From Mustelus asterias (taxonomy: Eukaryota): a DNA stretch of 64,000 nt. The notes beneath the pieces were generated by a model, which had not been told where the DNA came from, did no database searches, and worked only from the letters and a program-made list of their open reading frames with translations. Positions 69 to 59,460 of the stretch are shown piece after piece; within the stretch, counting starts at the first letter, position 1; the number at the start of each line of letters is the position of its first letter. A program made the translations under genes and the position numbers. Where the stretch lies: positions 1,054,001 to 1,118,000 of the forward strand of contig NW_027590138.1 in assembly GCF_964213995.1 (NCBI RefSeq), written 5' to 3'.

Positions 69-1456
69 TCATGAATATTTCCAGCGTTTTCCGTTTTATG
101 TCAACCAGAGAATGTGCAAGAATTGTCACACCCGGAACAGATGTCTCTTCCTCAGGACACCCCAGCTCGGGTCTGGGGGGTGCGGGGGGGGGGGGGGGGG
201 GGGGGGTGCGGGGGAGGGCTGCGGGTAACGTTCACAATTTTGTGTTTGTGTCTGGTGCGAATAATACTTCAGATTAAACGGAGAAGTTTTTTAAACTGAG
301 GAAAGTAGCTGCGTTTGGGCGCTGACTTTAAACAACGTGAACAAGCCCGGGCTGCTGGAGAAACATTTAGGGATTTGTGAGCAGTCAGTTCCGGCTGGTT
401 TGAAGTGAAATCCTGTCGGTGCTGCGGCAAATCTGAACTCAAACCAGACAAACTGGAACCGCTGGGTTAGAGATTCCGGGTGTTGGGATGTGGGAGCTGG
501 GGGAGGGGGAGATGGCGGTAAAACTCTGAGCCTGAGTTTAGACAGGGTGAGCGGGGTAAAGGGGAGGAATGACAGAGTTAATGTGGGAGTCAGGGACAAT
601 AGCAGAAAGTGGGAATCTCTGGAAAGGAGCAATGGGGGGAAAGGCCATCAAAGAATGCTTGTTTAAATGAAGATAAAAGCAAAATACTGTGGGTGCTGGA
701 ATCTGAAACAGAAACAGAAAATGCTGGAAATCTCAGCATCTGTGGAGAGAGAATAGAGTTAATGCTTCCAGTCTGGATGATCACAGATGCTGTCAGACCT
801 GCTGAGGTTTTCCAGCACTTTCTGTTTTTGATTAACTGAAGGTTCAGCAGGGAAAGAAGCAGCGAACTGAACACACTCAGTGAGGCTCTGCAATGTCCAT
901 CAACACATCCACATTGAGAGCGCCAAGGGGGAGGGGAAGGAGAAACTACTTGGGGCACAGCAGGAGGTCACCCCTACCCCCACTCTGTGGTTCCACATCC
1001 CTCCCTCACCTGGGCAGGGTTGGCTCGAGGTGCAGGAAGCTGCAAGCTGAGAGGCTGAGCTGTGAACTGGGCCGGGTTGGGGGTTTGAGTGACAGCCCTC
1101 GGGCTATATCAGGACAGGAACTGCCACAGATTCCCTCTTTTTTCCGTGGAGCTGTGTTGGTGAGTGTTTGTGCACTCTGGTTTCTCTTGATCCTATACAT
1201 GGATAGGATCTCTTGATCCTATAAATATTTTAGTGTAACCTCTGTCTCGCTGTCTTGGTAATGGGGGTGGGTTGTAGATTGCTGTGCGTGTTGACGAGAT
1301 AACCTGTCCTCAGCTAGTTTCGGTCTGCAGACTCCATTTCTCAGTCCAGTCTGCTGCTCTGTCTCTGTCTCTCTGTACTTTGCTGCAGTGCTCCACATTC
1401 TGAGCAACATCCAGCCCATTGTTATCTCCTGGAAAAAGCGGCAAACTGCCTTCACT

Positions 1457-12318: not shown

Positions 12319-13859
12319 GAAGGGAGTTTGCCGCAAATTTCGGGTGATAACAATGGGCTGGATGTTGCTCAGAATGTGGAGCACTGCAGCAAAGTACAGA
12401 GAGACAGAGCAGCAAACTGGACTGAGAAATGGAGTCTGCAGACTGGAACTGGCAGCATGAGGAGAGGTTATTTAGTCTAACACTCACAGCAATCTACAAC
12501 CCACCCCCATTACCGAGACAGTGAGACAGAGATTACAAACACTCACCAACACAGCTCCACTGAAACGTCCCAGGAAAAAGGGGGAATCTGTGGCAGTTCC
12601 TGTCCTGATATAGCCCCAGGACTGTCACTCAAACCCCCAACCCGGCCCAGTTCACAGCTCAGCCTCTCAGCTTGCAGCTTCCTGCACCTTGAGCCAACCC
12701 TGTCCAGGTGTGGGAGGGATGTGGAACCACAGAGTGGGGGGAGGGGTGACCTCCTGCTGTGTCCCAAATAGTTTCTCCTTCCCCTCCCCCTTGGCGCTCT
12801 AAGGTCTGAATGTGGATGTGTTGATGGACATTGCAGAGCCTCACTGAGCTGCGCCTGTCCCTTATCCTGGGTCACCCCCTCCCCCTGGGTTCAGTGTGTT
12901 CAGTTCCCTGCTTCTTTCCCTGCTGAGCTGAACCTTCAGTTCATCAAAAACAGAAAGTGCTGGAAAACCTCAGCAGGTCTGACAGCATCTGTGATCATCC
13001 AGACTGGAAGCATTAACTCTGTTCTCTCTCCACAGATGCTGTCAGACCTGCTGAGATTTTCCAGCATTTTCTGTTTCTGTTTCAGATTCCAGCACCCGCA
13101 GTATTTTGCTTTTATCTTCATTTAAACAAGCATTCTTTGACGGCCTTTACCCCCATTGCTCCTTTCCAGAGCTTCCCACCTTCTGCTATTGCCCCTGACT
13201 CCCACATTAACCCTGTCATTCCTCCCCTTTACCCCGCTCACCCTGTCTAAACTCAGGCTCAGAGTTTTACCGCCATCTCCCCCTCCCCCAGCCTCCACAT
13301 CCCAACACCCGGAATCTCTAACCCAGCGGTTCCAGTTTGTCTGGTTTGAGTTCAGATTTGCCGCAGCACCGACAGGATTTCACTTCAAACCAGCCGGGAC
13401 TGACTGCTCACAAATCCCTAAATGTTTCTCCAGCAGCCCGGACTTGTTAGTGTTGTTTAAAGTCAGCGCCCAAATGCAGTTACTTTCCTCAGTTTAAAAA
13501 ACTTCTCCGTTTAATCTAAAGTATTATTCGCACCAGACGCAAACACAAAATTGTGAACGTTACCCCCCCCCCCCCCCCAGACCCGAGCTGGGGTGTCCTG
13601 AGTAAGAGACATCTGTTCCAGGTGTGACAAGTCTTACACATTCTCTGGTTGGAAATATTCATGAATGAAAGCAAGTTGCTGCTTTTGTCAAAAGGGTCAC
13701 CTGAATTCGAAACCTCAGCTCTTTTTGTCTCCTTACAGATGCTGCCAGACCTGCTGAGATTTTCCAGCGTTTTCTCTTTTGGCTGGAAATGCTCAACAAG
13801 TCAGGCAGCCTCTGTGGAGAGAGAAACAGACTGAATGTGACCTGTCATCGGAACTGGGA

Positions 13860-24462: not shown

Positions 24463-25934
24463 AAGAGGGCAGGGAACAGGCTACAGATGAATTAAAGAGA
24501 AACCATTTGTGTCCAGAACATTGTGAACATCCTTTTACTCTGGTTGTCTTTGATCCTCAAGTCATTTTCTGTTTGTTTTAACCATGTTCTGTTTCATTAA
24601 TAAACTTTTATCAGTAAAAATATTTGATTTTTCTGGATTTTTTTCTGATTATATTGATGCACTTTAGGGAAAGTGGGTGAGAGGGGTTGGCAGGCTCTTT
24701 AACAGAAAGTGATCCCTCTAAGGTAATTGGCAAAGGAGCCAGAGGGGGAGATGAGATTATATTTTATATTTTTGACACAGCGAGGTGTTCTGATCTGCCT
24801 GAAAGCAGATTCAATAGAATCTTTCCAAACGTTAAAGACTTGAAAGGGAAGAATTTGCAGGGCTGTGGGGAAAGAACAGAGCAGTTGGATGAATCAGAGT
24901 CCTTTCAAATAGATAGCAGAGGCACAATGGGCTGAATGGACTCCTCCTGCAGCCTGTCAATCTCAGCCTCCTGCTTCTGTGCAAGTTAAAAGGGACAGAT
25001 TTCAGTGCAGCCTTTTCCCTGTTTATGTATTTAAAGAGACGGGTTTCTCTTTAGCTCTGAGTGACCGATATAACAATTGGTTGGAGGCCCATTTCCCACT
25101 CAGTCCTCCAGCACCTTCCTGTCTCTCCATTAGTGCGACACCCATGGCAGTTTCCCAACTGGGGCGTAGGCCCCATTATTCTCAGCGAAATTCAGCCCTC
25201 AGCTCCGTCGCCTGGCTGTCATTAACACGAGCAATAGAGAGACAGAAAGGTGCCCCAGGCTCAAATGGGAATCGAAACTTGTGGCTTTAAATGAACTGTT
25301 AGAATTTCTGTGACATTCAATAATTTAAAAAGTGAATTTAAACCCAGTGAATAAATTAAAGAATCACATGACAAAACTTCAAGTTTTTTGACATTTATTC
25401 CAACAAACTGGAAGCAACAATGACTAAATACTGTTCTTTGTAGGGAACATTGCCCTTAAACTGTAAAATTGAACTTTGCCCTTTTACTCTTAACACAATC
25501 AAATATCCCACTCAACGGTTATATTTTACTCTGTCTCCAAAATTTTCCAAAAACCAGTCCAAAGTGATTCTTCACTCCCCGAGTGTTTATTTCCTTTTCC
25601 AGTCTGGCAACCTTTAATCCCAGAACTGTCCTTCACAGTGATGGTTCTCCTGGACATTTTCCCACTAACACAAGCAAGGCGAATCTTCCAGCCTTGTTAC
25701 ACAATCCTCAGGAATTTGTGACCAACATTCAACATCAGAGCAGAAGTAGCCATTTGGCCCTTTGAGTCTGCTCCACCATTTATTTAGATCATGGCTGATC
25801 TTTTTGTGTTGAGTTCCACATTCTCGTTCTACACCCAATACTTTTGATGTCCTTATCCAAAAGAATTGGTATGAAGGCAAAATTCTGCTGTTGCTGGAAT
25901 CTGAAACAGACACAGGAAATGCTGGACAATCTCT

Positions 25935-26898
25935 TTGATCCACTGGAGCAAGCTGAGAGGGGTGATTGAAAAGCAGCAGTGCTGGTAAGAGATTAATTGG
26001 ATTAATTGAATTGTTTATTTATTTAATTAGTCAGCTAGTGTGTGTATTTTTTTGGCCTTTACTTTAACAGCAGTTTTTCAAGTTTAAAGTGAAAACTAGA
26101 AGTGGGCAGCAAAGGAGTCTGGGAAGGGTTTTTATTTTAACTTTAATAGTCAGTTACCTGGGAGGTGCCCCCTCATTGATCCACTGGAGCAAGCTGAGAG
26201 GGGTGATTGAAAAGCAGCAGTGCTGGTAAGAGATTAATTGGATTAATTGAATTGTTTATTTATTTAATTAGTCAGCTAGTGTGTGTATTTTTTTGGCCTT
26301 TACTTTAACAGCAGTTTTTCAAGTTTAAAGTGAAAACTAGAAGTGGGCAGCAAAGGAGTCTGGGAAGGGTTTTTATTTTAACTTTAAAAGTCAGTTACCT
26401 GGGAGGTTCCCCCTCATTGATCCACTGGAGCAAGCTGAGAGGGGTGATTGAAAAGCAGCAGTGCTGGTAAGAGATTAATTGGATTAATTGAATTGTTTAT
26501 TTATTTAATTAGTCAGCTAGTGTGTGTATTTTTTTGGCCTTTACTTTAACAGCAGTTTTTCAAGTTTAAAGTGAAAACTAGAAGTGGGCAGCAAAGGAGT
26601 CTGGGAAGGGTTTTTATTTTAACTTTAAAAGTCAGTTACCTGGAAGGTTCCCCCTCATTGATCCACTGGAGCAAGCTGAGAGGGGTGATTGAAAAGCAGC
26701 AGTGCTGGTAAGAGATTAATTGGATTAATTGAATTGTTTATTTATTTAATTAGTCAGCTAGTGTGTGTATTTTTTTGGCCTTTACTTTAACAGCAGTTTT
26801 TCAAGTTTAAAGTGAAAACTAGAAGTGGGCAGCAAAGGAGTCTGGGAAGGGTTTTTATTTTAACTTTAAAAGTCAGTTACCTGGGTGGTTCCCCCTCA
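25935..26898 (+). repeat. Four tandem 241-bp monomers at the 5' end of the CR1
   Basis: GATCCACTGGAGCAAG recurs at 25937, 26178, 26419, 26660. Confidence 0.95.
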
Positions 26899-27045
26899 GT
26901 AGTAGTTTTTTTTCTCTCGGGCCCCGAGCCCTATAAATTGGTGCAGAGGAGATACCCGATCCTCTACACTGGTAGAGGATCCCACCCTTCCATCCTCCTC
27001 TAACCTAATTATAAGTGTGGGGAAGTTTTTTGTTTTCTTTTTTTC

Positions 27046-27984
27046 TTGCTGGTAATGGCTTCAGGGATGGCAGTTCAGGCAGTATGCTGCATCTCCTGTG
27101 GGATGTATGTGGTGAGGAAATCCAGTAGTGTTTCAGGAGATTTTAGTTGTAAGAAGTGCATTAGATTGCAGCTTCTGGAGGAGCGTGTAAAGGAGCTGGA
27201 GGGGGAGGTAGAGGAACTCCGCATAATTCGGGAGGCGGAGGTGGAAGTTGATAGGAGTTATAGAGAAATAGTAACTCCTAGAAATGAGGCTTGGGTCAAT
27301 GCCAGGAGGAGGGGTAAGAAGCAATCGGGAAGACAATCCCCTGGGGCGGTTCCCCTCCATAATAGGTTTTCGGTGCTGGAGGCTACAGTTGAGGAGGAAT
27401 CAACTGAGCATAGAGAGCAGATCTCTGGGGGTGAGCCGAGTGAGAAAGCTCAGGTGGTTAGGGGCTGTAAAAGACTGGGCCTTGTGATTGGGGACTCCAC
27501 AATTAAGGGGACAGATAGGAGGGTCGGAACTAAAGGTAGGGACTCAGGGTTGGTGTGTTGCCTACCAGGGGCTGGGGTCCGGGATGTGTCTGACAGGGTA
27601 TTCAGGACTCTTAGGGGGGAGGGAGATAAACCACAAGTTATTGTACATGTGGGGACACACGACATAGGGAGGATAGGGGAAGGGGATATTAGGCAGGGAT
27701 TTATGGAGTTGGGGTGGAAACTAAAGGCCAAGACTGACAGAGTGGTTATCTCTGGACTCTTGCCTGTACCACGGGATAGTTTAGAGAGGAATAGGGAGAG
27801 GGAAGGTTTGAATTCATGGCTGAGGGGATGGTGCAGGAGGGAGGGGTTCAGGTACTTAAGCAATTGGGGCTCGTACTGGGGAAGGTGTGACCTCTATGAG
27901 AAGGATGGTCTACACCTTAATCAGAAGGGGATTAATATCATGGGGGGTAAATTTGCTAAGGCCATGCAGGGAGGTTTAAACTGA
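27046..27984 (+). CDS. CR1 ORF1 (Cys zinc finger, coiled coil, SGNH esterase-like)
   Basis: CISC..CKKC, LEERVKELE, VIGDS, VHVGTHD, DGLHLN. Confidence 0.92.
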   Translation: MLVMASGMAVQAVCCISCGMYVVRKSSSVSGDFSCKKCIRLQLLEERVKELEGEVEELRIIREAEVEVDRSYREIVTPRNEAWVNARRRGKKQSGRQSPGAVPLHNRFSVLEATVEEESTEHREQISGGEPSEKAQVVRGCKRLGLVIGDSTIKGTDRRVGTKGRDSGLVCCLPGAGVRDVSDRVFRTLRGEGDKPQVIVHVGTHDIGRIGEGDIRQGFMELGWKLKAKTDRVVISGLLPVPRDSLERNREREGLNSWLRGWCRREGFRYLSNWGSYWGRCDLYEKDGLHLNQKGINIMGGKFAKAMQGGLN

Positions 27985-28034
27985 TTCGGGGGGGGGGAGG
28001 GATCCTGAGTAGTGGGGCTGAAAGTGAGGGATGC

Positions 28035-30855
28035 ATGGATGGGGACTGCAATGCACGGCATTGCAGAGGTGGGGTGGAGCAGGGTTTGAAATGTGTATAC
28101 TTCAATGCCAGGAGTATTCGCAATAAAGTGGGTGAACTTGCAGCGTGGATCAGTACCTGGGACTTCGATGTTGTGGCTATTTCAGAGACATGGATAGAGC
28201 AGGGGCAGGAATGGATGCTGCAGGTCCCGGGGTTCAAATGTTTTAGTCGAAGTAGGGAAGGAGGTAGAAGAGGGGGAGGGGTAGCATTATTGGTCAGAGA
28301 TTGTATCACAGTGTCAGAGAGGAGGTTTGATGAGGACTTATCTGTTGAGGTAGTATGGGCGGAGATTAGAAATAGGAGAGGAGAGGTCACCCTGTTGGGA
28401 GTCTTTTATAGACCTCCTAAAAGTTCTAGAGAGGTTGAGGAAAGGATTGCGGAGTCAATCCTGCTTAGGAGTGAAAGTAATAGGGCAATTGTTATGGGGG
28501 ATTTTAACTTGACTAAAATTGACTGGAATTGTTATAGCTCTAGCTCGTTAGAGGGGTCAGTTTTTGTTCAAAGCGTGCAGGAAGGTTTTTTGACTCAGTA
28601 TGTAGACAGGCCAACTAGAGGTGAGGCTATATTGGATCTGGTGCTGGGAAATGAGCCAGACCAGGTGCTAGACTTGGAAGTTGGTGTGCATTTTGGTGAT
28701 AGTGACCACAATTCGGTTACGTTCACCTTAGTGATGGAAAGGGATAGGCATGAACCTCGGGCCAGTGGTTTTAGCTGGGGGAAGGGTAATTATGAGGCTA
28801 TTAGGAGAGAATTAGGAAACATAGGTTGGACTAGGAGATTACAGGGACTGGGAACGTCCGACATGTGGAGTTTTTTCAAGGAGCAGCTACTGCGAGTCTG
28901 TGATAGGTATGTCCCTGTCAGGCAAGGAGGAATTGGTAGGGCTAGGGAACCGTGGTGCACCAAAAAAGTTTCTTTGTTGGTTAAAAAGAAAAAGGAGGCT
29001 TATGTTCGGATGAGACGTGAGCACTCGGGTAGTGCACTAGAAAGCTTTAGATTGGCTAAGAGGGAGTTGAAGAGCGAGCTTAGAAGGGCTAAAAGGGGAC
29101 ATGAGAAGACTTTGGCGGATAGGGTTAAAGAGAATCCTAAGGCGTTCTATAGGTATGTCAAGAACAGAAGGTTGGTTAGGGCAAGTTTAGGGCCAGTTAT
29201 AGATGGCAGAGGGAAGTTATGTGTGGAACCGGAGGAGATTGGTGAAGCATTGAACCAATATTTCTCTTCGGTGTTCACGCAAGGGGACATGAATATAGCT
29301 GAGGAGGACACTGGGTTGCAAGGGAGTAGAATAGACAGTATTACAGTTGATAAGGAGGATGTGCAGGATATTCTGGAGGGTCTGAAAATAGATAAATCCC
29401 CTGGTCCGGATGGGATTTATCCAAGGATTCTCTGGGAGGCAAGAGAAGTGATTGCAGAGCCTCTGGCTCTGATCTTCAGGTCGTCGTTGGCCTCTGGTAT
29501 AGTACCAGAAGATTGGAGGTTAGCGAATGTTGTCCCATTGTTTAAGAAGGGGAACAGAGACTTCCCCGGGAATTATAGACCGGTGAGTCTCACTTCTGTT
29601 GTCGGCAAGATGTTGGAAAAAATTATAAGGGATAGGATTTATAGTTATTTGGAGAGTAATGAATTGATAGGTGATAGTCAGCATGGTTTTGTGGCAGGTA
29701 GGTCGTGCCTTACTAACCTTATTGAGTTTTTTGAGAAAGTGACCAAGGAGGTGGATGGGGGCAAGGCAGTGGACGTGGTATATATGGATTTTAGTAAGGC
29801 GTTTGATAAGGTTCACCATGGTAGGCTTCTGCAGAAAATGCAGATGTATGGGATTGGGGGTGATCTAGGAAATTGGATCAGGAATTGGCTAGCGGCTAGG
29901 AAACAGAGGGTGGTGGTTGATAGTAAATATTCATCATGGAGTGCGGTTACAAGTGGTGTACCTCAGGGATCTGTTTTGGGGCCACTGCTGTTTGTAATAT
30001 TTATTAATGATCTGGATGAGGGTATAGTTGGGTGGATTAGCAAATTTGCTGATGACACCAAAGTCGGTGGTGTGGTAGACAGTGAGGAAGGGTGTCGTAG
30101 TTTGCAGGAAGACTTAGACAGGTTGCAAAGTTGGGCCGAGAGGTGGCGGATGGAGTTTAATGCGGAGAAGTGTGAGGTAATTCACTTTGGTAGGAATAAC
30201 AGATGTGTTGAGTATAGGGCTAACGGGAGGACTTTGAATAGTGTGGAGGAGCAGAGGGATCTAGGTGTATGTGTGCATAGATCCCTGAAAGTTGGGAATC
30301 AAGTAGATAAGGTTGTTAAGAAGGCATATGGTGTCTTGGCGTTTATTGGTAGGGGGATTGAATTTAGGAGTCGTAGCGTTATGTTGCAACTGTACACAAC
30401 TCTGGTGCGGCCGCACTTGGAGTACTGTGTGCAGTTCTGGTCCCCACATTACAGGAAGGATGTGGAGGCTTTGGAGAGGGTGCAGAGGAGGTTTACCAGG
30501 ATGTTGCCTGGTATGGAGGGGAGATCCTATGAGGAGAGGCTGAGGGATTTGGGATTGTTTTCGCTGGAAAGGCGGCGGCTAAGAGGGGATCTTATTGAAA
30601 CATATAAGATGATTAGAGGTTTAGATAGGGTGGATAGTGATAGCCTTTTTCCTCTGATGGAGAAATCCAGCACGAGGGGGCATGGCTTTAAATTGAGGGG
30701 GGGGTAGTTATAGAACCGATGTCAGGGGTAGGTTCTTTACCCAGAGGGTGGTGAGGGATTGGAATGCCCTGCCAGCATCAGTAGTAAATGCGCCTAGTTT
30801 GGGGGCGTTTAAGAGATCCGTAGATAGGTTCATGGACGAAAAGAAATTGGTTTAG
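28035..30855 (+). CDS. CR1 ORF2 (APE endonuclease + reverse transcriptase); one extra G in G8 at 30697-30704 truncates the frame at 30707
   Basis: NARS, ISETW, MGDFN, SDH, GVPQGSVLGP, FADD; corrected frame ends at TAG 30853-30855. Confidence 0.92.
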
Positions 30856-31847
30856 GTTGGAGGGTCACAGTTTTTTTTTTTAACTGGTCGGTGCAACATC
30901 GTGGGCCGAAGGGCCTGTTCTGCGCTGTAATGTTCTATGTTCTATGTTCTATGTTCTATCTCAGCAAGTCTGACAGCATCTGTAAAGAGAGAATGGAGGC
31001 AACATTTGGAGTCAGGATGACCCTTTATCAGAGCTGAAAACAAAGAAAATCAGACAAAATTCATCCCGTGAGGGTCAAGAATTGGGAAGCAATCTATTAA
31101 ACCTCCTCTGAACCACTTTCAATGCATTTGTATCATTTCTTAAATAGGAGACAAAGCTACACCCAGTGTTCAAGATGCAGTCTCAGCAATGCCCTGTATA
31201 ACTGAAGCAGAACATCTTTACTTCTATGTTCAATTTCTTTCGTAATAAAGGATAACATTCCATTTGTAAGAACTTTGATTTATGTGAATGAAGATTTATG
31301 AGGGTTCTCTTGTTTACAATAACCTCCCCAATCGTAAATCACACCAGGTTCCAGTGACTTAACCATGTGGCAAGAAAGAAAGCAAGCTTTAAATGGTGAA
31401 ATCAGAAAGTTTGTTAACCATTAAAAATGTAACAAGTCAGAAAGATAAAAAGCAAAGTGTCGATTAACAGTTAATAGAGAAAGTTTAACTTTAACAATTG
31501 AACAGACTTCTCTCCATCCCTCAGACCAGGACATGACGTGACGGCTCCGAAAACGTGGATAACTTGTAAAACCAACAGCTCACCACACCTCTCTGTAAAC
31601 ATATCTCCCTCCACCTCTCTCTACCAAGTTGGCTTCTCAAGACCACTTTTTTATACTTTAAAAATGCTGAAAGCCCATCTTAGCCAATTCCCATAAATCT
31701 TCAATTATGAACTAAAATAGACACGAGTTTTCGGGTGATTTAAAAACAAATGAACTGTCTGCTGAAAGGGTTAACTTTTCTACAGAACCTAAAGGGGTGG
31801 AGAGTGAGCAGCAAAAACTTGGCACACAATTACATCACTTTACACAA

Positions 31848-34311
31848 CCATAGAACCATAGAAAATTACAGCTCAGAAACAGGCCTTTTGGCCCTTCTTG
31901 TCTGTGCCGAACCATTTTTTGCCTAGTCCCACTGACCTGCACTTGGACCATATCCCTCCACACCCCTCTCATCCATGAGCCCGTCCAAGTTTTTCTTGAA
32001 TGTTAAAAGTTAAATGTTAAATTTACCACTTTATCCGGCAGCTCATTCCACACTGCCACCACTCTCTGCGGGAAGAAGCCCCCCCCCTAATATTCCCTTT
32101 AAACTTTTCTTTCACCCTTAACCCATGCCCTCTGTTTTTTTTCTCCCCGAGCCTCAGCGGAAAAAGCCTGCTTGCATTCACTCTATCTATACCCGTCAAA
32201 ATCTTATACACCTCTATCAAATCTCCCCTCAATCTTCTACGCTCCAGGGAATAAAGTCCCAACCCATTCAATCTCTTTCTGTAACTCAGCTTCTCAAGTC
32301 CCGGCAACATCCTTGTGAACCTTCTCTGCACTCTTTCAACCTTATTTACATCCTTCCTGTAACTAGGTGACCAAAACTGTACACAATACTCCAAATTCGG
32401 CCGCACCAATGCCTTGTATAACCTTACCATAACACTCCAACTTTTATACTCGATACTCCGATTTATAAAGGCCAATGTACCAAAGGCACTCTTTACGACC
32501 CTATCCACCCTTGACGTCACTTTTAGGGAATTCTGTACCTGTATTCCCAGATCCCTCTGTTCAACTGCACTCTTCAGAGTCCTACCACTTACCCTGTACG
32601 TTCTACTTTGGTTTGTCCTTCCAATGTGCAATATCTCACACTTGTCTGCGTTAAATTCCATTTGCCATTTTTCAGCCCATTTTTCTAGTTGGTCCAAATC
32701 CCTCTGCAAGCTTTGAAAACCTTCCTCACTGTCCACTACACCTCCAATCTTTGTATCATCAGCAAACTTGCTGATCCAATTTACCACATTATCATCCAGA
32801 TCATTGATATAGATGACAAACAACAATGGACCCAACACCGATCCCTGCGGCACACCACTAGTCACAGGCCTCCACTCAGAGAAGCAATTCTCCACAACCA
32901 CTCTCTGGCTTCTTCCATTGAGCCGGCATCTCCACATCACGTTCTTCCATTGAGCCAGTGTCTAATCCAATTTACTACCTCCCCATGTATACCACGCGAC
33001 TGAACCTTCCTAACTAACCTCCCATGAGGGACCTTGTCAAAGGCCTTGCTGAAATCCAGGTCGACAACACCCACCGCCTTCCCTTCATCCACTTTCCTGG
33101 TAACCTCCTCGAAAAACTCTAATAGATTGGTCAAACATGACCTACCACGCACAAAGCCATGTTGACTCTCCCTAATAAGTCCCTGTCTATCCAAATATTT
33201 GTAGATCCTATCCCTTATCACACCTTCCAATAATTTGCCCACCGACGTCAAACTTACTGGCCTATAATTTCCCGGATTTCTTTTGGAACCTTTTTTAAAC
33301 AACGGAACAACATGAGCCACCCTCCAATCATCCGGCACCTCCCCCGTGAATACTGACATTTTAAATATGTCTGCCAGGGCCCCTGCAAGTTCAACACTAG
33401 CTTCCCTCAAGGTCCGTGGGAATACCCTGACCGGTCCTGGGGATTTATCCACTCTGATTTGCCTCAAGACAGCAAGCACTTCCTCCCCTTTAATCTGTAA
33501 AGGTTCCATGACCTCCCTACCAGTTTGCCCTATTTCCGTAGACTCCATGTCCGTTTCCTCAGTAAATACGGATGCAAAAAAACCATTTAGTATCTCCCCC
33601 ATCTCTTTTGGTTCCATACACAGTCTACCACTCTGGTCTTCAAGAGGACCAATTTTATCCCTATCCTTTTGCTCCTAACATACCTATAGAAGCTCTTTGG
33701 ATTTCCTTCACTCTGTCTGCCAAAGCAACCTCATGTCTTCTTTTAGCCCTCCTGATTTCCCTCTTAAGTAGCTTCTTGCACTTTTTATACTCCTCGAGCA
33801 TCTGATGTGTTCCTTGCTGCCTGTACATTTCATACAACTCTCTCTTCCTCTTAATCAGTGTTACAATCTCCCTCGAGAACCAAGGTTCCTTATTCCTATT
33901 TACTTTGCCTTTAATCCTGACAGGAACATACAAACTCTGCACTCTCAAAATTTCTCCTTTGAAGGCCTCCCACTTTCCATTTACATCCTTACCAGAGAAC
34001 AGCCTGTGCCAATCCACACTTCCCAGATCCCTTCTCATTTATCAAATTTGGCCTTTTTCCAGTTCAGAGCTTCAACCCGAGGACCAGATCTATCCTTATC
34101 CACGATCAGGTTGAAACTAATGGCATTATGATCACTGGATCCAAAGTGTTCCCTCACACTCACATCCATCACCTGCCCTAACTCATTTCCCAATAGGAGA
34201 TCCAATATCGCATCCTCTCTAGTTGGCACCTCTATATACTGATGCAGAAAATTCTCCTGAACACATTTTACAAACTCTACCCCGTCTAAACCTTTAACAG
34301 TATGCGAGTCC
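31848..34311 (-). mobile_element. 5'-truncated CR1 LINE with frameshifted ORF2
   Basis: RT/endonuclease peptides in ORFs 32023-34370; (TTCTATGG)n tail. Confidence 0.9.
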
Positions 34312-37379: not shown

Positions 37380-39092
37380 TATAAGGCTGCAGATACCTCC
37401 TCCCAAGTAACATGCGTGTGCCCAAGACATCACCACTTGTTTCCCTTATTTCTTTCGCACCCATGGTGCTCTCCGCAGTAAACACAGAGGAGAAGTATTC
37501 ATTAAAAATCTCACCCATCTCCTGTGTCTCCACACACAGATGGCCATACTGATTTTTAAGGGGATCTATTCTCTCTCTAGCCACCCTTTTACTCTTAATA
37601 TAGCTATAGAACCTCTTGGAATTTTCTTTAATCTTTAAACCCAATGTATGCTTCCTTCTTTTACCTGACCAGAGCCTCAATGTCCCTTGTCTGCCAGAGA
37701 TCCCTAAATTTACCATTCTTTCCCTGCATCTTAACAGGAATATACTGCCCTGGATTCTTGATATCACACTTTTAAAACCTTCCATTTGCCAGTCATTCCT
37801 TTCCCTTCAAACAAACTCACCTAATCAACATCTGCTCGATCCTGCCTAATGCCCACAAAAGTGGCCCTGCTCATCCATCCTCTGGATTACCTCTTCGGAA
37901 AACAATAAAAGATTTGTCAGACATGACTTCCCGTGCACAAAGCGGTGCTGACTATCCCTAATCACACCGTCAGAATCCAAATGTTGGTAGATTCTGTCCT
38001 TCACAATCCCCTCCAGTAACTTACCCACCACTGATGTCAGACTACCGGCCTATAATTCCCAGGCTTCTCTTTGCTACGCTTCTTAAACAACAGAACAACA
38101 TTAACATGTTCTATTCTTCCAGAACTTCACCAGGAGAAAGAGATGAAACAAATATCTCTGCAAGGGGCTCTGTAATTCCTTCCTGAGCCTCCCACAAGAT
38201 CTGAAGATATAATTGATCAGACCCAGGGGATTTATCCACCTTAATGCACTTTAAGGCTGCAGATACCTCCTCCCGAGTAATATGCATGTGGTCCAAGACA
38301 TCACAGCTTCTTTCTCTTATTTCTTCAGCATCCATCATGTTCTCCTCAGGAAACACCAAGGAGAAATATTCATTAAAAATCGCACCCATCTCCTGTGACT
38401 CCATCCTCAGATAGCCATGCTGATTTTTAAGGGGACCTATTCTCTCTCTCTCTAGCCACCCTTTTACTCTTAATATCGCGATAGAACCTCTTGGGATTTT
38501 CATAGAATCCATACAGTGCAGAAAGAGGCCATTTGGCCCATCGAATCTGCACCGACCACAATCCCACCCAGGCCCTACCCCCATATCCCGACATATTTAC
38601 CCGCTAATTCCTCTAACCTACGCATCTCAGGACACTAAGGGGCAATTTTAGCATGGCCAATCAACCTAACCCACACATCTTTGGACTGTGTTAAAGTTAA
38701 ATTTTCTTTAACTTTACCTGCCAGATCCATATCATACCCTCTTAAGTGTTCTCTTACACTTTTAAGAGACATCGAGTGATTCACTTGTCCCCGATTGTCT
38801 AAACCCAATGTCTGCTTCCTTCTTTTACCTGACCAGAACCTCAATGTCCCTTGTCAGCCAGGGATCCCTAAATTTACCATTCTTTCCCTTCATCCTGACA
38901 GGAATATACTGCCCCTGGACTCTTTATCACACTTTTAAAACCTCCCATTTGCCAGTCATTCCTTTCCCTTCAAACAAACTCATCTAATCGACATCTGCTA
39001 GATCCTGCCTAATGCCCACAAAAGTGGCCCTGCTCCAGTTTAGGGCCTTGATCTGTGGACCTGTCCTATCTTTTTCCAGAACTATTTTGAAA
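37380..39092 (-). mobile_element. Rearranged, internally duplicated CR1 ORF2 fragments with a SINE insert (~38500-38690)
   Basis: EMGEIFNEYFSSVF and VDKSPG peptides; 37380-37870 duplicated at 38250-39035. Confidence 0.75.
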
Positions 39093-39159
39093 CTATTGGT
39101 GCTCCCAATAGTGCTCCACGACTGACACTTCAGTCACTTGCTCTACCTCATTTCTTAAC

Positions 39160-41790: not shown

Positions 41791-42600
41791 TGATAATTGT
41801 GAGGTGATTCATTTTGGTAGGACTAATTTAAATGTGGATTACAGGGTCAAAGGTAGGGTTCTGAAGACTGTGGAGGAACAGAGAGATCTTGGGGTCCATA
41901 TCCACAGATCTCTAAAGGTTGCCACTCAAGTTGATAGAGCTGTGAAGAAGGCCTATAGTGTGTTAGCTTTTATTAACAGGGGGTTGGAGTTTAAGAGCCG
42001 TAGGGTTATGCTGCAACTGTACAGAACCTTGGTGAGACCACATTTGGAATATTGTGTGCAGTTCTGGTCAGCTCACTATAAGAAGGATGTGGAAGCGCTG
42101 GAAAGAGTGCAGAGGAGATTTACCAGGATGCTGCCTGGTTTGGAGGGTAGGTCTTATGAGGAAAGGTTGAGGGAGGTGGGGCTGTTCTCTCTGGAGCGGA
42201 GGAGGCTGAGGGGGGACTTAATAGAGGTTTATAAAATGATGAAGGGGATAGATAGAGTGAACGTTCAAAGACTATTTCCTCGGGTGGATGGAGCTATTAC
42301 AAGGGGGCATAACTATAGGGTTCGTGGTGGGAGATATAGGAAGGATATCAGAGGTAGGTTCTTTACGCAGAGAGTGGTTGTGGTGTGGAATGGACTGCCT
42401 GCAGTGATAGTGGAGTCAGACACTTTAGGAACATTTAAGCGGTTATTGGATAGACACATGGAGCATACCAGGATGATAGGGAGTGGGATAGCTTGATCTT
42501 GGTTTCAGATAAAGCTCGGCACAACATCGTGGGCCGAAGGGCCTGTTCTGTGCTGTACTGTTCTATGTTTTCCATTGTTTTTCTATGTTCTCTATGTTCT
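41791..42600 (+). mobile_element. 5'-truncated CR1 LINE
   Basis: CEVIHFG..VRPHLEYCVQFW..; TTCTATG tail. Confidence 0.9.
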
Positions 42601-58479: not shown

Positions 58480-59460
58480 TAGAACCACAGAACCGTAGGA
58501 CATTACAGCACAGAAACAGGCCATTTGTCCCTTCTTGGCTGTGCCGAACCATTTTTCTGCCTAGTCCCACTGACCTGCACCTGGACCACATCCCTCCACA
58601 CCCCTCTCACCCATGTACCTGTCCAAGTTTTTCTTAAATGTTAAAAGTGAGCCCACATTCACCACTTCATCTGGCAGCTCATTCCACACTCGCACCACTC
58701 TCTGTGTGAAGAAGCCCCCCCCCTAATATTCCCTTCAAACTTTTCCCCCCTCACCCTTAACCCATGTCCTCTAGTTATTTTCTCCCCTAGCCTCAGTGGA
58801 AAAAGCCTGCTTGCATTCATTCTATCTGTACCCATCATAATTTTATACACCTCTATCAAATCTCCCCTCATTCTTCTACGCTCCAGGGAATAAAGTCCTA
58901 ACCTTTCTCTGTAACTCAGTTTCTCAAGACCCGGCAACATCCTTGTAAACCTTCTCTGCACTCTTTCAACCTTATTAATATCCCTCCTGTAATTAGGTGA
59001 CCAAAACTGCACAAAATACTCTAAATTCGGCCTCACCAATGTCTTATACAACTTCACCATAACATTCCAACTCCACACACAGCCTTTCTATTTGTGATTT
59101 TGCATGAACTATTAACATCATTTATTTTCACCAACGCTCCACTATCTGCTCTGGCACTCTGGTTCCCATCCCCCTGCAAATCTAGTTTAAACCCTTCCCA
59201 ATAACACTAGCAAACCTTCCTGCAAGTATATTGGTCCCCTTGTAGTTCAGGTGTAACCCATCTCTCTTGTACAGGTCCCACCTGCCCCAGAAGAGGTTCC
59301 AATGATATAGAAATCTGAAACCCTGCCCCCTACACCAGTTCCTCAGCCACGTGTTCATCCGCCTGAGCATCCTACTCTTACCCTCACTGGCACGTGGCAC
59401 AGGTAGCAATCCTGAGATTACTCCCCTCGGGGTCCTGCTTTTTAACTTCCCACCAAGTTG
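58480..59460 (-). mobile_element. Internally deleted CR1 (ORF1 end and ORF2 start joined to the ORF2 3' end at ~59075)
   Basis: ISGLLPVPR..DGLHLN..GLN* then LYKTLVRPNLEY.. Confidence 0.85.

Follow-up and report, generated by a model that had tools for sequence, protein, structure and literature searches.

A 64,000-nt stretch of the Mustelus asterias genome (the window, on which all coordinates are based; "own genome" below means that of M. asterias) carries at ~25934-30957, on the plus strand, a young and nearly full-length long interspersed element (LINE), which lies inside a 5-bp duplication and encodes two open reading frames (ORFs). ORF1 (27055-27984, plus strand; 309 aa; stop-to-stop 27004-27984, first Met at 27055) has Cys pairs in its N-terminal part, a coiled coil predicted by eye and an SGNH/GDSL esterase domain, whose PF13472 score of 32.6 bits falls slightly under the cut-off of 32.9. 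It matches the structure of an ORF1-encoded protein (PDB 4c1b, E 6.7e-21), and its named relatives are shark and ray proteins. The body of ORF2 (28092-30707, plus strand) contains an APE endonuclease (~28098-28709) and a reverse transcriptase (~29547-30200). With a Cys-rich N-terminus and an SGNH esterase in ORF1, an APE endonuclease and a reverse transcriptase in ORF2, and a tail of short repeats rather than poly(A), the element is an esterase-type vertebrate CR1. Its esterase, ORF2 domains, tail and 5-bp duplication likewise agree with canonical vertebrate CR1 (esterase ORF1 of type IVB, CR1 subgroup 7) as outlined in PMC4120745 and PMC13343379. The family is very young, each copy differing from the column majority at 0-7 positions over ~2 kb, and it is large, with 2,646 genome matches to its junction and 13,163 to a 3′ motif.

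The two frames meet at an unusual junction, all of it on the plus strand. ORF1 ends GGT TTA AAC TGA (Gly-Leu-Asn-stop), so that the heptamer T TTA AAC (27975-27981), a candidate −1 frameshift site of the form X XXY YYZ, is adjoined on its 3′ side by the stop TGA (27982-27984), which in relatives is TAA, TAG or TGA. ORF2 lies in the −1 frame, which is closed by a TAA at 27957-27959 and then open for 915 codons (27960-30707), reading GHAGRFKLIRGGGGILSSGAESEGCMDG... into the Exo_endo_phos and RVT_1 domains. Between the slip site and the endonuclease, this frame forms an open linker (27981-28091) whose length varies among families. Past the stop lies a G-box (27988-28001), a candidate stimulator that reads G10-A-GGG in the window copy and is G5-6-N-T-GGG-like in other families. 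Farther into the linker, at 28031-28037, come an out-of-frame ATG (28031) and then, at 28035, the sole ATG that precedes the endonuclease in frame, on which the reinitiation alternative weighed below builds.

The original prediction, made from this sequence alone, was that the CR1 family may produce an ORF1-ORF2 fusion by a gag-pol-like −1 frameshift. Its reading of the site holds: the heptamer is phased and placed as claimed, the reading frames confirm that ORF2 is open in −1 from the TAA through to the endonuclease, and the G10 run (27988-27997) does start 6 nt downstream of the heptamer. It was silent on the ATGs at 28035 and 28031 and on an extra G that ends ORF2 early. The G10 run is not an assembly artefact: three other runs each supply one contig that spans the junction ungapped. 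The ten-letter motif TTTAAACTRR by itself proves nothing, because only two of its four occurrences in the window (0.73 expected) are ORF1 ends, at 27975 and, on the minus strand, at 59182-59191; the conservation of the junction far exceeds chance.

Conservation of the heptamer and of the ORF2 frame

To avoid circularity, 120 own-genome loci were chosen solely by upstream DGLHL-type patterns; 105 of them have 24 open codons past the anchor, and 85 are in register, their stop falling at codon 27. Read at one fixed offset, these 85 copies have TTTAAAC in 71 cases, TTTAAAT in 5 and another sequence in 9, mostly through single changes. The codon before Leu encodes Gly, Cys, Ala, Ser, Asp, Thr, Val or Ile, yet its final base is T in 84/85. 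Control Leu codons at positions 12-23 use TTA in 2/98 instances and control Asn at codon 11 uses AAC in 2/59, while the ORF1 stop itself is unconstrained (50 TAA, 31 TAG and 4 TGA). Several old divergent copies (L150, L156, L166, L167 and L168) carry TTTAAAT in place of TTTAAAC, a spelling that would still allow slippage. An independent sample, drawn by a motif of the 5′ untranslated region (UTR), has the exact heptamer in 20/22 copies and an open −1 linker in 20/22; 4 of the 22 repeat earlier places, and 8 of 30 were without the anchor.

Kinship among copies was controlled by taking one natural copy from each of 11 own-genome families together with 6 bird-type loci (3 of 9 bird-type loci were dropped for short open frames), the two groups being 29% identical to each other. 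At the ORF1 end of these 17 representatives, the codon before Leu ends in T in 17/17, Leu is TTA in 16/17 and Asn is AAC in 17/17, whereas none of 16 other conserved residues is written with a single codon. Free synonymous variation had been named in advance as an outcome that would count against frameshifting; the synonymous positions of the heptamer are instead frozen across copies and families. These comparisons indicate that the heptamer is selected as nucleotides, its synonymous positions being conserved beyond the needs of the protein.

The frame of ORF2 was followed in 86 unbiased, decayed copies in which the heptamer is nearly intact and the endonuclease could be located. Of these, 58 have the endonuclease in −1, 12 have it in frame 0 and 16 in +1. 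Across the linkers of the 58 −1 copies, the −1 frame holds only 17 stops in 3102 codons, versus 205 and 275 in the other two frames. Upstream of the heptamer, stops in the same frame number 107 among 2900 codons, and in 42/58 copies the frame is closed 5 codons before the heptamer, the distance of the TAA in the window copy. Linker lengths have modes from 117 to 360 nt across families, all multiples of 3. By family, the modal copy is −1 in 10 of the 11 sampled, and in the eleventh, that of the window LINE, 77 of 100 copies in a positional listing are −1, which largely bears out a second expectation attached to the original prediction, that ORF2 should keep its frame. Start codons behave differently. 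Through the first endonuclease motif (NARS), 28 of the 58 −1 copies are without Met; a shared Met before the endonuclease motif is absent in 5/11 families, and a further family is Met-less in 6/7 open copies. Comparison of the 11 families revealed no ATG or near-cognate start common to them. Because the −1 frame is stop-poor after the heptamer and closed before it, and because no shared start exists, the ORF2 coding frame, as read from these alignments, begins with the heptamer rather than with a start codon. Among longer proteins, a search for a natural in-frame fusion gave 2 weak matches, neither with endonuclease or reverse transcriptase domains listed, which says little for or against such a product.

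Overall, the junction is real and deeply conserved, and it behaves as a −1 frameshift site in every sequence test except that for a stimulator. The predicted fusion is well supported by these tests, and we consider it very probable that programmed −1 frameshifting yields an ORF1-ORF2 fusion in esterase-type CR1 LINEs. The majority of ribosomes would stop after Leu-Asn and release the ORF1 protein. A minority would slip by −1 in tandem, with tRNA-Leu re-pairing from UUA to UUU and tRNA-Asn from AAC to AAA. The next codon would be a C-U-R Leu overlapping the stop, and translation would continue through the linker, the endonuclease and the reverse transcriptase, giving in an intact family member a fusion of ORF1, endonuclease and reverse transcriptase of ~1,270 aa. 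The ratio of ORF1 to ORF2 product would thereby be fixed, like that of Gag to Gag-Pol. A 2016 review lists U_UUA_AAC as one of the heptamers on which mammalian ribosomes shift most readily (PMC5009743).

The junction extends well beyond this genome. Most ORF1 homologues that cover the end region finish in Leu-Asn; this ending is present in 73 of the 120 listed ORF1 matches, many of the remainder being truncated or chimeric predictions. From 55 bird-type metagenome loci, obtained via a bird-rich alignment, 22 reach the ORF1 end and 20 are readable there; the heptamer is exact in 13 of the 20, changed in 5 and unclear in 2. Consensus sequences were examined in the supplementary table of PMC13343379, as motif-selected rows of which the initial 400 nt were covered. 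Rows labelled CR1 there include junctions laid out in this way, and 18 of 23 motif matches sit at such a junction as judged by eye. Read from their abbreviations, the species of these rows are alligator, crocodile, bearded dragon, bullfrog, coelacanth, bowfin, a teleost, a chimaera, rays and sharks. No other spelling of Leu-Asn-stop was seen at a CR1 junction, by eye, among 24 of the table's 33 such occurrences, one L2 row being ambiguous. Matches in the supplement of PMC4316615 (Suh 2014), one file left out, lie solely near the ORF2 3′ end. Searches of prokaryote and viral collections returned no relatives; one shark-type CR1 ORF1 protein (P0011) carries a bacterial source label, probably through contamination of the record.

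Other CR1 sequences are present in the window itself. The minus-strand occurrence at 59182-59191 belongs to a second CR1 fragment, a divergent one that shares the junction (TTTAAAC TAG and, past it, a G-box). In this fragment (58746-59460, minus strand), the ORF1 end and junction are joined ~120 nt later, by an internal deletion, to the C-terminal part of ORF2. More decayed CR1-type ORF2 fragments lie at 32110-34310 and 37411-39094 on the minus strand and at 41792-42331 on the plus strand. An unidentified repeat is present in two copies, at 140-500 (plus) and ~13290-13650 (minus); in each, a long run of G and a run of T stand ahead of TTTAAACTGA, and there is no similarity to ORF1.

The G-box and the remainder of the element

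The G-box stands out 10-19 nt past the heptamer, where GGG is used for 18/19 Gly codons versus 28/91 in the background; this bias indicates conservation at the nucleotide level. It is also visible in bird-type loci and in crocodilian consensus rows. The original prediction had pointed to G-quadruplexes as possible stimulators, and this holds at best for particular families. A three-tier quadruplex pattern (four G3 tracts with loops of 1-7 nt) is not general, being present in 4/118 copies outside the window LINE family and in 0/7 bird-type loci. Within the family, this short-loop pattern is confined to copies with G11 or longer, and the G10 copy would require a loop of 12 nt. Two-tier patterns are enriched (61/118 copies versus 185/1242 control windows, or 15%) and are absent in four families. 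Quadruplex-stimulated frameshifting in nature was described as anticipated but not known in the 2016 review, in the part consulted (PMC5009743).

The pause signal is most likely the conserved G-box together with the adjacent stop, which is the least certain step of the scheme, and the G-box probably works by binding a protein or by forming a weak two-tier quadruplex rather than a fixed hairpin. More tentatively, and with less than an even chance of being right as a whole, CR1 LINEs of jawed vertebrates may make their reverse transcriptase as a Gag-Pol-like fusion whose trigger is either a two-tier quadruplex or a G-box devoid of structure and recognised by a protein, be it a host factor that binds G-tracts or the ORF1 protein.

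Several other candidates were set aside. A conserved hairpin was considered, and some families do pair post-stop bases with bases past the G-box, but the mean z is ~0. Pairing of the G-box with the C-rich 5′ UTR motif is the best duplex in the long copies of the window LINE family, yet mismatches elsewhere are uncompensated and the partner is absent in family 0. A G11 run as the family norm was suggested by 21/31 loci, a sample taken from listing order, but a positional listing gives G10 in 76/100. Nor do G11 copies form a master lineage: they are marked by no substitution, and minor sub-lineages mix G10, G11 and G16. A comparison of 25900-28300 with Rfam yielded nothing at E values up to 1.

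The rest of the element is that of a recent insertion. Its target-site duplication is ATCTC, with the left copy at 25929-25933 (plus strand) and the identical 5 bases at 30958-30962. The 5′ UTR contains a tandem array of a 241-bp monomer (25931-26898, plus strand; 4.0 copies, 99% alike), and these four monomers recall the promoter monomers of rodent L1. Downstream of the array (26958-27005, plus strand) are a hairpin and then a C-rich motif common to several families, which together may well be a promoter element. The hairpin arms vary in sequence among families; the conserved C-rich motif that follows them contains CCCACCC and has 267 matches beyond the family's own spelling. At the other end, a G8 run near the ORF2 end (30697-30704, plus strand) has one G more than all 100 listed family copies, which have G7. 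The window copy is probably defective, because this extra G ends its ORF2 49 codons early. The same neighbourhood (30684-30704) resembles the junction in that Phe-Lys-Leu is followed by a G-run; it is in frame, has the wrong slippery phase and is not conserved in the neighbouring element. The 3′ tail is (ATGTTCT) repeated 4.3 times (30930-30959, plus strand).

Alternative routes to ORF2 and wider significance

Several observations weigh against programmed frameshifting at this junction. Most −1 frameshift sites have a 3′ hairpin or pseudoknot; no conserved hairpin was found here over 27 junctions (mean z ~0), and no conserved pseudoknot was seen either, though pseudoknots were not modelled explicitly. 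The families are kin, and within the genome their four-fold sites fall short of full saturation (mean identity 0.47), with 4/30 control columns invariant there. Among 100 listed copies of the window LINE family, 23 have a G-run that puts them out of frame. These copies share no defining substitution and form no clade, and the G7 run in ORF2 is stable, which fits a long run that slipped repeatedly, as it was copied or assembled, better than it fits lost constraint. The same family has an in-frame ATG (28035) only 50 nt after the stop, though the out-of-frame ATG at 28031 precedes it, and a TAATG stop-start overlap of the kind known from SART1 is found in 2/11 families. Lastly, the matches in the consensus table of PMC13343379, as far as that table was drawn on, are motif-selected and lack a denominator.

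L1 ORF2 translation can be AUG-independent. Termination-reinitiation as in L1 or SART1, in which some ribosomes would start again close by, at an AUG or at another codon, to give a separate ORF2, and the heptamer would serve as a termination or tethering signal, could draw on the ATG at 28035, on one at linker codon 26 of a sister family and on the TAATG overlaps, and SART1 does employ UAAUG with a downstream structure in the accounts sampled (PMC3708506, PMC10275272). We nevertheless regard it as unlikely. The out-of-frame ATG comes first in the window copy, the position of a start codon is not shared among families, and about half of the families have no shared Met before the endonuclease motif at all (above). 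Reinitiation would also leave unexplained why the −1 frame is kept between the heptamer and the Met, and why X XXY YYZ is exactly frozen while the stop varies. A conserved AUG overlapping or adjoining the ORF1 stop, as in SART1-type coupling, is absent from the window copy and confined to the two TAATG families. In these, family 2 (L061-L090) and family 5 (L206-L235), an ATG in frame with ORF2 begins within the stop, and the heptamer is retained. Both routes may operate there, with reinitiation contributing.

Two further alternatives are less probable still. Seven bases could be fixed without any slip if they encoded both Leu-Asn of ORF1 and Phe-Lys-Leu of an ORF2 begun upstream, since Leu-Asn in frame 0 with Phe-Lys in −1 permits almost solely TTTAAAY, and a Phe-Lys-Leu stretch does recur near the ORF2 C-terminus. 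This dual-coding constraint is largely refuted: in most copies, as given above, a stop 5 codons earlier closes the −1 frame, and an upstream −1-frame Met is present in just 5 copies across the 11 families, so a start for reading Phe-Lys is lacking. A change of frame in the RNA, through splicing or through a polymerase that slips in the T/A or G runs, is an equally slight prospect. The length of the G10 run varies among genomic copies, and long runs therefore do slip during copying; but T3A3 falls short of the lengths at which transcriptional slippage is known, G-runs in other families are just 5-6 bases long, and the genomic G-run is already in the ORF2 frame, so that slippage there would break ORF2 instead of opening it. 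The stop varies among TAA, TAG and TGA, and a splice acceptor is therefore not fixed. Programmed −1 frameshifting remains the reading we favour.

This reading has parallels in several known systems. The coronavirus 1a/1b site is the same U_UUA_AAC in the same phase, and retroviral gag-pol likewise places a structural protein upstream and the polymerase downstream in −1 (PMC5009743, as excerpted). In contrast to viral X_XXY_YYZ sites, CR1 is a chromosomal element that lacks long terminal repeats (non-LTR), its stop adjoins the heptamer, and a G-box takes the place of the pseudoknot or hairpin. Precedent for a frameshifted ORF2 among non-LTR elements is provided by Dictyostelium TRE5-A and TRE3-A, APE-type elements that both need a −1 frameshift for ORF2 according to a review, in the portion drawn on (PMC5911963). 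They belong to another clade and another host and have another ORF1, and the likeness rests on the frameshift rather than on a comparison of shift sites. SART1 and L1 share with CR1 a bicistronic LINE RNA; in CR1 the overlap or AUG is unconserved and the heptamer conserved, and the predicted product is a fusion rather than a separate ORF2. For the stimulator, a parallel is protein-stimulated frameshifting. In the arterivirus (nsp1beta with PCBP) and cardiovirus systems, as at the CR1 junction, a short motif lies ~10 nt 3′ of the slip site and a stable structure is lacking. Trans-activation of frameshifting is described in the 2016 review (PMC5009743). The arterivirus motif is C-rich, whereas the CR1 G-box is G-rich and its binding protein putative.

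No description of a CR1 frameshift junction was found in the titles and abstracts searched, though older papers, Repbase reports and the 1997 chicken and turtle CR1 papers might mention an overlap or frameshifting. In the main texts of PMC4120745 and PMC13343379, the words "frameshift" and "overlap" are absent, and neither text covers the junction signal. The way in which LINEs translate ORF2 has yet to be settled (PMC3894237, PMC3708506), and the cases tested so far in that literature use reinitiation. CR1-group elements are the dominant retrotransposons in most vertebrates (PMC13343379).

If the frameshift reading is correct, the CR1 enzyme would bear a membrane-associated esterase domain at its N-terminus, the ratio of ORF1 to ORF2 would be set by a signal of 25 bases, and database entries that begin ORF2 at the first Met would be wrong. 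The junction would then be among the most widespread −1 frameshift signals of vertebrate genomes, the matches to the window LINE family's junction alone, counted in the own genome only, numbering in the thousands (above). Were the proposed role of the G-box also true, CR1 would offer a natural, chromosomal case of a type of stimulator so far known from viruses and synthetic constructs.

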